The notes: generated by a model from the letters alone, not told the origin. 61,894 nt of DNA from Acidimicrobiia bacterium (GCA_035938395.1 DASZGY010000019.1:1-61894); one strand, 5' to 3'; counted from the stretch's first letter, positions 30,395-33,168 are shown. Made by a program: numbers and translations.

Positions 30395-30760
30395 CTAGCT
30401 CCAGCCCAGCTCGCGGAGGCGGGCATCGTCGATGCCGAAGTGGTGCCCGATCTCGTGGACCACGGTGACCCGGATCTGGTGGGCGAGGTGCGCTTCGTCT
30501 TGTGACCGCTCGCACAATGGTCCCCGGAAGATCGTGACGCGGTCCGGCATCACGCCCGCGTAGTTGAGCGGCGAGCGGTTGGTGAGCTGTACGCCTTCGT
30601 ACAGACCGAGGAGCGTGCCCGGCCGACCACCGAGCTGCTCGCGTGTCGGCCAGTCCTCGACGAGGACCACCACGTTGTCCATGTGCACGGCCAGGTCGGG
30701 GGGAATGGAGTCGAGCGCGTCGGCGACGAGCTCTTCGAACCGGGGGCGCGACACGTGCAT
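30395..30760 (-). CDS. Minimal zincin-like metallopeptidase (Zincin_1)
   Basis: FEELVADALD, LLGLYEG, PDRVTIFR, VVHEIGHHFGIDD. Confidence 0.9.
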   Translation of the reverse strand: MHVSRPRFEELVADALDSIPPDLAVHMDNVVVLVEDWPTREQLGGRPGTLLGLYEGVQLTNRSPLNYAGVMPDRVTIFRGPLCERSQDEAHLAHQIRVTVVHEIGHHFGIDDARLRELGWS

Positions 30761-30791
30761 CAAACGAAAGTACCCGAGGTCGCGAAGTCCC

Positions 30792-30820
30792 TTGACGGCG
30801 CGCGGTCGCGGTCGTATGTT
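30792..30820 (+). promoter_or_regulatory. Primary-sigma promoter of the candidate ncRNA
   Basis: TTGACG (30792-30797), 17-bp spacer, TATGTT (30815-30820). Confidence 0.8.
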
Positions 30821-30827
30821 CCGTGGC

Positions 30828-31056
30828 ACCGGTGACAAGGGCACGGCACTGGTGATGTCTGCAAGGACAGCAGCCGGAATACGGGTCCGAGGAGTCGGTC
30901 GGCGACCGAACGTCGGAGCGATCCGGCGCCGGGGGCCGGGACAGAGCCGATGGGGACGCCCCGCCCGCCGGGGAGCCCCCGAAGCAATCGTCCGAACGGG
31001 AGGCCCCGAGGAGATCGGAGCTGCGACGCAGCGAAGACTACTCGGGGCCTTTTCCA
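30828..31056 (+). ncRNA. Candidate structured non-coding RNA (~230 nt), family not recognised
   Basis: Bounded by a consensus promoter and a terminator; several hairpins with GNRA loops (TGTCT-GCAA-GGACA; GTCGGA-GCGA-TCCGGC); no credible ORF. Confidence 0.7.
31001..31056 (+). terminator. Intrinsic terminator-like composite hairpin
   Basis: AGGCCCCGAG (31001-31010) pairs with CTCGGGGCCT (31041-31050), apical GCTGC-GAC-GCAGC, followed by TTTCCATTT. Confidence 0.75.
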
Positions 31057-31122
31057 TTTCCGCGTGTGCGACTCGAGGGACGGTCCGCGGTTCCTGTCGT
31101 ACCCGATCGGTATGGTCCACGA

Positions 31123-33168
31123 GTGCGTCCTGACCAATTGCTCGAGGACCCGTTGCTCGAGGGCCTCGACGAGGCGCAGCGTGAGGCCGTCACCACGCGT
31201 GCCGTACCGCTCGCGATTCTCGCCGGCGCCGGCGCGGGCAAGACGCGCGTCCTGACCCGTCGCATCGCCTGGCAGGCCCGGCACGCGCACATCGACCCGG
31301 GGCACACGCTCGCCGTCACGTTCACGCGCAAGGCCGCCGGCGAGCTCGGCGATCGCCTCACCCGGCTCGGGGTCCGCCGCCAGGTCGCCGCGGGCACGTT
31401 CCACGCCATCGCGCTGGCCCAGCTTCGGCGGCGGTGCGAGGACCACGACCAGCCGATGCCGAAGCTGCTCGACCGGAAAGCGCGCCTCCTCGTGCCGATG
31501 CTGCCGGGGCGGGGCGGGGAGCGCGCGCTGCTCGCCGCCGAGGTCGCCACCGAGATCGAGTGGGCCAAGGCACGCCTCGTCCGCGCCGACGGCTACCAGG
31601 CTGCCGCGGAGGCGGCGCGGCGGGACCCGCCGCGACCCCCGGCCGAGATCGCCGTGTTCTTCGAGCGGTACGAACGCGAGCGCCGCCGGCGGGGGCTCGT
31701 CGATTTCGACGACCTCATCACGTGGTGCGCCCACGCGCTCGAGACCGACGCCGAGTTCCAGGCCGCGCAGCGATGGCGGTTCCAGCACGTCTTCGTCGAC
31801 GAGTTCCAGGACGCCAACCCCGCCCAGTTCCGCCTCGTCCGCGCCTGGCTCGGCGACCGCCCCGACCTGTGCGTCGTCGGTGACGGCGACCAGGCGATCT
31901 ATGGGTTCGCGGGCGCCGACGCGTCGTATCTCACCTCGTTCGGCGACCACTTCCCCGACGCGTCCGTCGTGCGGCTCGGCACGAACTACCGCTCCTCGCC
32001 GCAGGTGGTGTCGGCGGCGGCCGCGGTGCTGGAGACGAGCGGTGATCGAGCCGACGTCCGCAGCTCGCGACCCGAGGGCCCGCTCCCCGTCGTCCGTTCG
32101 TACCCCAGCGACGAAGCCGAAGCCGAGGGCGTCGCCCGTACGTTGCGGCGCGACCACGCGCCGGGGACCCCGTGGTCGTCGGCGGCGGTGCTGTACCGGA
32201 CGAACGCCCAGTCGGCGCTGTTCGAGGAGGCACTCCGGCGCGAAGGCGTCCCGTTCCGCGTTCGGGGCGGCGGACGGTTCCTCGACCGACCGGAGGTCCA
32301 GGTCGCGCTGGAGACGCTGCGCGAGCGGACCCGCGAACAGCCCGGCGTCCCGTTCGCGGGACATCTGGAAGCCCTCACCGAGAGCACCGCCGACGCGTCC
32401 GAGGAACGACGCGAGCACGTCGAGGCGATCGGCCGCCTCGGCCGCGACTACCTCGTCGCCGACGGCGGCATCGGCTCACTCGCCGGGTTCCTCGAGTTCC
32501 TGCAGACCGCGTTGCGGGCCGGCGACGACACCGGCGCCACGAGCGCCGATGCAGTGGAGCTGCTCAGCTTCCATCGCGCCAAGGGGCTCGAGTTCGACAC
32601 CGTGTTCGTCGCCGGCTTGGAGACGGGGCTCGTGCCGATCGTGCACGCCGAGACGCCGCAGGAGAAGGCCGAGGAGCTGCGCCTCCTGTACGTGGCGTTG
32701 TCGCGCGCCGAGCGCTCGCTGCACGTGAGCTGGGCCCAGAAGCGCACCGTTGGGATGCGTACGTACCGCCGTACGCCCAGCCCGTGGCTGGCTCCGATCG
32801 AGGCGACGGTGTCGGCGGCGCGCACGCCGGAACGCGGCAGCGGCGCGCGCGACCGGCAGGGTCACGGGCTCGCCGCCGCCCGTGAGCAGGTCGCCGGGGC
32901 GCGACGCCAGTCCGGAGCCGACCGCGAGCGCCCGCTCGACGCCGAGGCAACCGAGCTCCTGGGCGCGCTGCTCGAATGGCGTCGAAACCTCGCGCGCGCG
33001 TCGGGCGTGCCGGCGTACGTGATCTTCCACGACACGACCCTCGAGGCCGTCGCCCGCGACCGGCCGCAGTCCCGGGGCGACCTGCTGACGATCCCGGGCA
33101 TCGGGCCGGTCAAGCTCCAGCGGCACGGCCAGGCTCTGCTCGAGATGGTCGGCCGCCACGCCGGCTGA
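31123..33168 (+). CDS. uvrD2: ATP-dependent DNA helicase UvrD2 (C-terminal HRDC)
   Basis: AGAGAGKT, TFTRKAA, VDEFQD, VGDGDQAIY, NYRS, HRAKGLEF, LLYVALSRA; HRDC WRR...VPAYVIFHDTTL; leaderless GTG 6 nt after TATGGT. Confidence 0.92.
   Translation: MRPDQLLEDPLLEGLDEAQREAVTTRAVPLAILAGAGAGKTRVLTRRIAWQARHAHIDPGHTLAVTFTRKAAGELGDRLTRLGVRRQVAAGTFHAIALAQLRRRCEDHDQPMPKLLDRKARLLVPMLPGRGGERALLAAEVATEIEWAKARLVRADGYQAAAEAARRDPPRPPAEIAVFFERYERERRRRGLVDFDDLITWCAHALETDAEFQAAQRWRFQHVFVDEFQDANPAQFRLVRAWLGDRPDLCVVGDGDQAIYGFAGADASYLTSFGDHFPDASVVRLGTNYRSSPQVVSAAAAVLETSGDRADVRSSRPEGPLPVVRSYPSDEAEAEGVARTLRRDHAPGTPWSSAAVLYRTNAQSALFEEALRREGVPFRVRGGGRFLDRPEVQVALETLRERTREQPGVPFAGHLEALTESTADASEERREHVEAIGRLGRDYLVADGGIGSLAGFLEFLQTALRAGDDTGATSADAVELLSFHRAKGLEFDTVFVAGLETGLVPIVHAETPQEKAEELRLLYVALSRAERSLHVSWAQKRTVGMRTYRRTPSPWLAPIEATVSAARTPERGSGARDRQGHGLAAAREQVAGARRQSGADRERPLDAEATELLGALLEWRRNLARASGVPAYVIFHDTTLEAVARDRPQSRGDLLTIPGIGPVKLQRHGQALLEMVGRHAG

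Follow-up and report, generated by a model that had tools for sequence, protein, structure and literature searches.

We describe here a stand-alone gene for a structured RNA, independent of its neighbours, on contig DASZGY010000019.1 of an Acidimicrobiia bacterium (GCA_035938395.1); this whole stretch of 61,894 nucleotides is referred to as the window, and all coordinates are counted from its first letter. The RNA is expressed in soil and, as far as sequence searches can tell, is a member of an undescribed family that most Acidimicrobiia of the high-G+C, soil type carry and that also turns up in a few lineages elsewhere in the Actinomycetota. The family is defined by a TTGACN promoter, a structured body and a 3' rod with GCCCCGAGGAG ... 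CUACUCGGGGC, and the window RNA has all three. We give about an even chance to the interpretation that the RNA acts in trans by binding protein, as the RNA component of a ribonucleoprotein. A sequence-only reading of the same DNA had proposed a stand-alone structured RNA, possibly of a new class; the strand-specific promoter, the covarying rod, the occurrence in other gene contexts, the contigs from RNA libraries and the lack of a match in Rfam all speak for that proposal. The features on which the argument depends are as follows.

30792..30797, plus strand: -35 hexamer TTGACG of the RNA promoter (sigma-70-like site scan; upstream conservation in the family)
30815..30820, plus strand: -10 hexamer TATGTT of the RNA promoter (sigma-70-like site scan)
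about 30827..31064, plus strand: predicted RNA of about 235 nt (fold, BLAST conservation, RNA contigs and pairing of the rod extension)
30827..30993, plus strand: variable structured body (minimum-energy fold; differs in sequence and length across the family)
30994..31064, plus strand: 3' rod, a long irregular hairpin made of helix extension, invariant helix and distal stem-loop (alignments)
about 30994-31002 with 31049-31062, plus strand: helix extension of the 3' rod (pairing permutation test)
31003..31013, plus strand: invariant 5' strand GCCCCGAGGAG (hairpin alignments; also in other classes of the phylum)
31014..31037, plus strand: distal part, with bulge and internal loop (GGA/GAA), stem GCUGC/GCAGC and GAC loop (alignment)
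31038..31048, plus strand: invariant 3' strand CUACUCGGGGC, in which A31040 stands opposite G31011 as a G·A mismatch (hairpin alignments)

The promoter had been called near-consensus from the sequence alone, and it proves to be the sole sigma-70-like site between 30300 and 31500 (TTGACG-N17-TATGTT at 30792-30820; shuffled sequences, 0.0 ± 0.2). It is also conserved in a strand-specific manner: of 137 non-identical family members, 110 have the pattern TTGACN-N16-19-YANNNT within 420 bases upstream on the same strand as the RNA, compared with 1 of 137 for the opposite strand and 1 of 131 for the downstream region. The -10 position would place the transcription start at about 30826-30828, giving the 5' end of the predicted RNA, and its 3' end is placed beyond the paired tail described below. 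A long plus-strand frame at 30564-31133 was considered as a coding region and rejected, being broken by 1-nt insertions and deletions among members of the genus.

The real support for a structured RNA comes from conservation and not from folding energy, which is modestly better than chance and on its own weak evidence. The computed fold of the plus strand has an energy of -117.9 kcal/mol (z = -2.46), matched by 2 of 200 shuffles, and the minus strand reaches z = -1.67, matched by 13 of 200. Conservation of the rod is of another order. In an alignment of 30 hairpins (A1) 38 of 66 columns are invariant and the GCCCCGAGGAG strand is unchanged in all 30, and the 10-bp helix with its G·A mismatch that this strand forms with CUACUCGGGGC does not vary within the order and is met again in other Actinomycetota. 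A second alignment of 33 diverse hairpins (A3) has 99.5% of its cells paired, against 31-44% when the partners are slid. Of the 12 basal pairs, nine are the same in all 33 sequences, whereas four of the five distal pairs are altered on both sides yet still paired. Five pairs in this alignment change on both sides, and none of 500 shuffles matches the observed values. The distal loop is UUCG, GAC, GAAA, GCAA or another sequence in relatives. Below the helix, the 14 bases on either side fold with their own partners at -17.35 kcal/mol compared with -14.98 when partners are swapped, and none of 5000 permutations is as low. The distal stem and the helix extension thus covary around an unchanging 10-bp helix, which is the conserved and covarying structure that a stand-alone RNA was expected to have in its relatives. 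Because the extension strands pair, the RNA must reach at least 12-14 bases beyond CUACUCGGGGC and end inside a long rod. Two unpublished genomes, G012 (locus L018) and G021 (L024), contribute rows to A1 and A3, L018 also to A4, and both genomes are in the dereplicated sets used for the counts of length, loops, tails and promoters and for the pairing test of the rod extension; no conclusion hangs on them alone.

The strand of the RNA is plus, since the promoter, the score of the hairpin model (83-91 bits on the plus strand against 33 on the minus at the window locus) and the strand-specific G-U pairs and GNRA loops all agree; the G-U pairs, the G·A mismatch and the GNRA and other stable tetraloops exist on the plus strand only. 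These observations also bear on the idea that the element acts at the DNA level, as an inverted repeat that serves as a protein-binding or recombination site. The CCCCGAG...CUCGGGG repeat with its invariant arms would suit such a site, but the spacer between the arms differs in length (about 20 to 30 nt) and shows the covariation of a stem, the G-U pairs, tetraloops and promoter are all specific to one strand, and contigs from RNA libraries cover the repeat, so that we regard this explanation as largely refuted and extremely improbable.

The RNA had also been credited with its own terminator, which is right in part. The hairpin is present and is a conserved functional module, but it lacks a canonical U-tract: a scan of the window that required at least five T in eight found no canonical terminator, the tail in most family members is CCUUCCCGCG and is base-paired with the upstream strand, and the stem in the window is followed by only UUUU and then CCAUUU. 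We note that in the 35 nt after the hairpin of three relatives (L048, L086 and L160) the tail is repeated directly once, giving tandem duplications of 13-16 nt that suggest slippage at the gene's 3' end.

Expression in soil is seen in public RNA libraries. Sequence words of 30600-31300 occur in 24 runs, 16 of them recorded as RNA, mostly small soil metatranscriptomes. Four soil metatranscriptome runs from four studies each yielded one contig that equals 30836-31020 (30836-31004 in run X5) without mismatch, and in the same four runs nothing from the source organism was found on 30600-30835 or 31021-31300, which include parts of the flanking zincin-like peptidase gene and of uvrD2. Coverage was taken from these 4 of the 24 listed runs; the uncovered parts and the other 20 runs are no evidence of absence or of habitat. 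The ends of the contigs probably reflect breaks in the assembly graph, because the conserved hairpin is common to many species. Pieces at 31215-31255, with three mismatches and loose ends, are helicase motifs of other organisms. Given the near-consensus promoter, the presence in small soil metatranscriptomes and a helix conserved to the degree of ribosomal RNA, this RNA is probably among the main non-ribosomal RNAs of these cells, in line with the earlier suggestion of an abundant RNA.

The gene lies in a gap of about 360 bases between two protein-coding genes, the second of which has a -10 element of its own.

30395..30760, minus strand: zincin-like metallopeptidase gene, upstream and divergent (PF06262, E = 6.9e-32)
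31111..31125, plus strand: -10 of uvrD2, TATGGT (31111-31116), with 6-nt spacer and GTG start (31123) (conserved block)
31123..33168, plus strand: uvrD2, the downstream gene (UvrD helicase, with UvrD_C and HRDC domains)

How closely the RNA is tied to these neighbours was assessed at the loci of 30 relatives and by searching species genomes for the exact pattern, which listed at least 120 records; one of them falls by chance within a gene of Alistipes, leaving 119 loci, and the remaining records listed are metagenome-assembled genomes (MAGs), nearly all labelled Acidimicrobiia or unclassified Actinomycetota. The gene uvrD2 lies downstream on the RNA strand in 28 of the 30 relatives' loci and in 83 of the 119 pattern loci listed, and the zincin gene is found on the upstream side in 25 and 52 of them, respectively. 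Neither gene adjoins the RNA in 31 of the 119 listed loci, 19 of which have at least 900 nt on both sides. These other contexts are unrelated to one another: LigD-PrimPol and XdhC genes in the family f49, where the next gene is convergent to the RNA, TetR and ACT-protein genes in f75, and, in two groups of Acidimicrobiales, SLT transglycosylase with amine oxidase and cupin with acylphosphatase. In a member of the same family as the source (L020:1-3058) the RNA is inverted between the same neighbours, such that uvrD2 is upstream on the opposite strand and the zincin gene is 22 nt downstream on the RNA strand.

The leaderless -10 that the sequence-only reading assigned to uvrD2 (TATGGT, six nucleotides, GTG) is present and is conserved across families; a block cGGTAnnGTc followed after 5-7 nt by GTG or ATG is retained in 23 aligned relatives from several families, which fits a leaderless uvrD2 with a promoter of its own. 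In the window (31088-31125) the sequence GTCGTAC precedes this block. Five hairpin-less genomes of the order have uvrD2 with no such RNA upstream.

It is in this light that we consider the RNA as a cis-acting leader or attenuator of uvrD2, in which transcription would stop at the hairpin or read through on a signal. The co-oriented uvrD2 downstream of the RNA at most of the loci counted above and the hairpin without a strong U-tract make read-through into uvrD2 conceivable. A leader, however, would lie always upstream of, and co-oriented with, a gene that has no promoter, and we find the RNA in that position in 83 of 119 listed loci, inverted in L020, away from uvrD2 in 31 of 119 with a convergent next gene in f49, and next to a gene with a conserved leaderless -10; moreover five relatives carry uvrD2 without the RNA, and, as a weak hint, the RNA contigs stop short of uvrD2 in all four runs. 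A leader function is therefore very unlikely, and the earlier view that the RNA need not be a 5' untranslated region of uvrD2 is upheld by the inversion, the unrelated contexts, the separate -10 and the RNA-only contigs.

Outside the rod the RNA has a different character. The hairpins listed from the sequence alone are all found both in the sequence and in the minimum-energy fold, including the helices UCGGUC/GACCGA and GUCGGA-GCGA-UCCGGC, and the body of the window RNA is predicted to comprise the following elements.

30827-30854, plus strand: 5' hairpin CACCGGUG/CACUGGUG (sequence and minimum-energy fold)
30856-30869, plus strand: GCAA-capped hairpin UGUCU-GCAA-GGACA (sequence and minimum-energy fold)
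30870-30929, plus strand: long arm with GCGA and triloop caps (minimum-energy fold)
30931-30980, plus strand: branched domain closed by GGGGGC/GCCCCC (sequence and minimum-energy fold)

Within the genus 88% of the cells of this body are paired, compared with 36-45% with partners slid. The GGGGGC/GCCCCC-closed domain is present in the window fold, but among members of the genus no more than 62% of the cells retain its closing helix. Likewise, the count of about ten GGA trinucleotides is right (10), but they are not enriched, as dinucleotide shuffles give 9.7 ± 2.1 and reach at least 10 in 1061 of 2000 cases.

A BLAST search with 30780-31070 found a match in 51 of 61 related genomes (two further unpublished genomes, G020 and G022, enter only the tallies over these 61, for BLAST, raiA and 6S). 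All 18 other genomes of the genus match near full length at 73-97% identity. Farther afield, matching is confined to the promoter and, most of all, the 3' hairpin, where many families of the order show 80-100% identity across some 50 bases. With a model of the hairpin at E ≤ 0.01, 29 of 151 sampled genomes of the class were matched, the window locus scoring 91 bits; these include about 22 of 35 genomes in families that were also sampled among the same-order relatives, together with four convincing matches in other orders, and matches near the limit are partly weak or false (for example L058). A second hairpin model matched 8 of 151 genomes in a sample of the phylum, the source genome among them, with f49, outside the class, contributing 6 of 10 genomes and f75 one. 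There is one locus per genome, second matches being the opposite strand of the same place (28-40 bits, compared with 43-91).

The hairpin model found nothing in two families whose genomes are 1.1-1.8 Mb (0 of 4 and 0 of 35), and loss of the RNA may be linked with streamlined, perhaps aquatic, lineages. The RNA-less genomes of the order (L197, L198 and L199) look lower in G+C around uvrD2, judged by eye. In one Microthrixaceae MAG contig (L072:4500-5420) the whole gene with its promoter is present twice as a perfect 353-nt tandem duplication, the copies being 100% identical and 518 nt apart, which is either a very recent event or an assembly artefact. Two MAGs of Candidatus Microthrix (L135 and L173) also bear the hairpin. 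The hairpin also appears in MAGs labelled Bifidobacteriaceae, Bifidobacterium, Burkholderiales or Acidoferrales (L073, L102, L115, L155, L182 and L184); all of these contigs except L155 also bear an Acidimicrobiia-type uvrD2 alongside, and they are probably mis-binned or mislabelled.

Members of the family vary widely in size and anatomy. When the start is set 6-8 bases past the -10, 77 dereplicated members range from 138 to 330 nt with a median of 245, and the number of body arms runs from one to about six; the shortest forms, of about 143 nt, consist of two hairpins and are seen also in L028-L030 and L119. The sequence of the body is not conserved beyond close relatives, and a second sequence module, CGGUACCGG ... 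CCGGAACACG, is limited to the family-level clade of the source, with both halves in 40 of 167 loci. The mean fold energy of members is nonetheless -102.5 kcal/mol compared with -90.9 for shuffles, and of 285 predicted body loops 93 are GNRA and 51 YNYG (UUCG, CUCG, CUUG and UCCG), where shuffles give 12.2 and 2.9. In the predicted folds, the body is clearly selected for structure, as a set of fast-evolving helices capped by GNRA or UNCG-type tetraloops.

This combination of one fixed helix and a freely changing scaffold is what a function must explain. It might be thought to point to an RNA-only function, in which a compact tertiary fold, an RNA assembly or a ribozyme would be held together by GNRA contacts with the invariant helix in its core. 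The roughly ten-fold excess of GNRA and YNYG loops, the conservation of one helix at a level like that of ribosomal RNA, and the abundance of the RNA in soil RNA libraries are all in keeping with this, but beyond the rod we found no junction, pseudoknot or internal loop that is conserved, a number of arms between one and about six is hard to fit to one three-dimensional core, and no ribozyme family in Rfam matches; we consider it quite unlikely.

A base-pairing regulatory small RNA is a further alternative, acting in trans on mRNAs like 6C or other actinobacterial small RNAs, with the rod as stabiliser, terminator or chaperone handle. In favour are the independence of the gene and its possession of a promoter and a 3' hairpin; some members have C-rich loops (CCCGC in the genus, ACCC and AUCC in the 143-nt forms, CCCCGA and UUCCC in f49), and 6C itself was not found in the source genome. 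The C-rich loops are, however, a minority (GNRA and YNYG types make up 144 of the 285 predicted loops), the family as a whole shares no conserved single-stranded stretch, the sole invariant part is a closed helix, and the body evolves too fast for a conserved seed. Genome sites complementary to either invariant strand occur only in counts of the kind expected from codon usage. We judge this alternative to be unlikely.

We prefer protein binding to base pairing because the predicted fold is scarcely single-stranded, the loops are structural tetraloops, and the fixed part is a closed helix. As we picture the trans-acting, protein-binding RNA, a strong promoter of the primary-sigma type would drive an RNA of about 235 nt ending in the long 3' rod, a conserved protein would dock on the invariant, G·A-mismatched helix, and the tetraloop-capped arms, free to vary, would serve as scaffold. 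The leading candidate partner is RNA polymerase, in which case the RNA would be the Acidimicrobiia counterpart of 6S, Ms1 or CoRP. Polymerase is suggested because no 6S was found in the genome or in 60 of 61 relatives, and because Ms1 and CoRP are precedents for polymerase-binding RNAs that escaped homology searches. By this analogy the RNA might be an abundant polymerase-binding RNA of Acidimicrobiia, a fourth type beside 6S, Ms1 and CoRP, with the helix docking on polymerase or an associated factor; we put this forward tentatively, as a possibility on the doubtful side.

Several observations count against a protein-binding, and in particular a polymerase-binding, RNA. The invariant double helix is an unusual target for a protein and could instead serve pairing in trans, processing or RNA-RNA contacts, and the suggestion of a protein partner is drawn from predicted structure. 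At least five well-assembled genomes of the same order lack the RNA, whether in front of uvrD2 or anywhere else in the genome; a 6S RNA was likewise not detected in these, which makes the argument from an open niche a weak one. In shape, 6S is a rod with a central bubble, whereas the predicted fold here is multi-branched or consists of two hairpins. The gene neighbourhood yields no hint of function. Covariation of the body within the genus is weak (6 pairs, compared with 4.4 in shuffles), for there is too little divergence. Finally, the contigs from soil carry no RNA ends, strand or level, and represent presence in RNA libraries with silent flanks only.

Acidimicrobiia are common in soils and sediments, mostly uncultured, and their RNA biology is almost unknown. 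If the partner of the RNA is something other than polymerase, the invariant helix offers a bait for a new RNA-protein pair; and in transcriptomes it is a sharp 22-base marker for these bacteria.

The relation of this RNA to described families was examined with Rfam 15, which gave no match at gathering scores over the whole window and, at E ≤ 10 over 30650-31250, three chance-level matches only, the best at 17.8 bits against a cut-off of 60. Full-text searches of the literature, which did not extend to supplements, gave no description of it. The sequence-only reading had not recognised it as signal recognition particle (SRP) RNA, RNase P, transfer-messenger RNA or a known riboswitch, in keeping with the Rfam result, and an unusual SRP RNA was set aside since a normal one sits elsewhere in the genome. 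The suggestion of a protein sponge fares less well: a CsrB/RsmZ-type GGA sponge of CsrA was rejected as GGA is not enriched and CsrA (PF02599) was not found in the 96% complete genome (positive in three control genomes). A Y RNA or YrlA was also rejected, with Ro60 (TROVE, PF05731) not found in the genome and no Rfam Y RNA match.

Among small actinobacterial RNAs, 6C (RF01066) is likewise a stand-alone hairpin RNA, but at about 75 nt and with C-rich loops it differs from an RNA whose loops are mostly of GNRA or UNCG type; its model has no match in the window or genome, and 6C-like seed loops were rejected because C-rich loops are few. The raiA motif (RF03072), described from Bacillota and Actinomycetota including some Acidimicrobiia in the account of PMC10861870, is similar as there described in being single-copy, abundant, highly structured, about 200 nt long, of unknown biochemical function and in variable gene contexts. 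It has many conserved nucleotides over P1-P8 and pseudoknots, whereas the RNA described here has one invariant helix only, and raiA was rejected as an identity: the window has no match, and the best match in the genome is at another place with 17.3 bits against a cut-off of 101.3. A raiA search of the 61 relatives was negative throughout but also in its positive control, and carries no weight.

Like 6S, which binds the sigma-A holoenzyme and templates pRNA, the present RNA is probably an abundant housekeeping small RNA in which structure is conserved over sequence. The two differ in that the ends of 6S pair with each other, whereas the 3' tail here is predicted to pair about 60 nt upstream. 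The 6S model (RF00013) has no match in the window at its gathering score of 46.4 bits or at E ≤ 10, nor in the whole 96% complete genome at E ≤ 1, a search that was positive in five known genomes. A sole 6S match among the 61 relatives (L200, G019:C362:1904-2060) scores 48.2 bits, just above the cut-off; the MAG it comes from has 78% completeness and 5% contamination, and a contaminating contig may be its origin.

Ms1 (Ms1/MTS2823 in Mycobacterium, scr3559 in Streptomyces) binds the RNA polymerase core and resembles the present RNA in general properties, being an actinobacterial, stand-alone, abundant, structured RNA of a few hundred nucleotides with a strong promoter and one locus per genome, and, like this RNA, one reported as not found in several small genomes (PMC9130861). 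Its flanks according to the same source are genes for an HAD-IB hydrolase/'inhibition of morphological differentiation' protein and an oxidoreductase; compared by published synteny only, this does not agree with a location between the zincin (PF06262) and uvrD2 genes, or elsewhere. When two Streptomyces-like 6C neighbourhoods were scanned with Rfam, no family called Ms1 came up, and the invariant-hairpin model had no match in these neighbourhoods, its phylum-sample matches beyond the class being only f49 and f75. The earlier suggestion of an Ms1 or 6S analogue, which has neither a 6S model match nor Ms1 synteny on its side, is overall neither established nor dismissed.

CoRP of Corynebacterium glutamicum is the precedent for a lineage-specific RNA. 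As described in PMC11077062, and compared by that description only, it differs from the window RNA in its size of 516 nt, its location between tRNA genes and its cleavage into two fragments; the same account presents it as abundant, polymerase-binding and particular to its lineage, overlooked when homology and synteny were searched, and proposes that every species possesses a single abundant RNA that binds polymerase, the type differing between species. Were the Acidimicrobiia RNA found to be bound to RNA polymerase, it would support this proposal of lineage-own polymerase-binding RNAs and add to 6S, Ms1 and CoRP a structurally new type.
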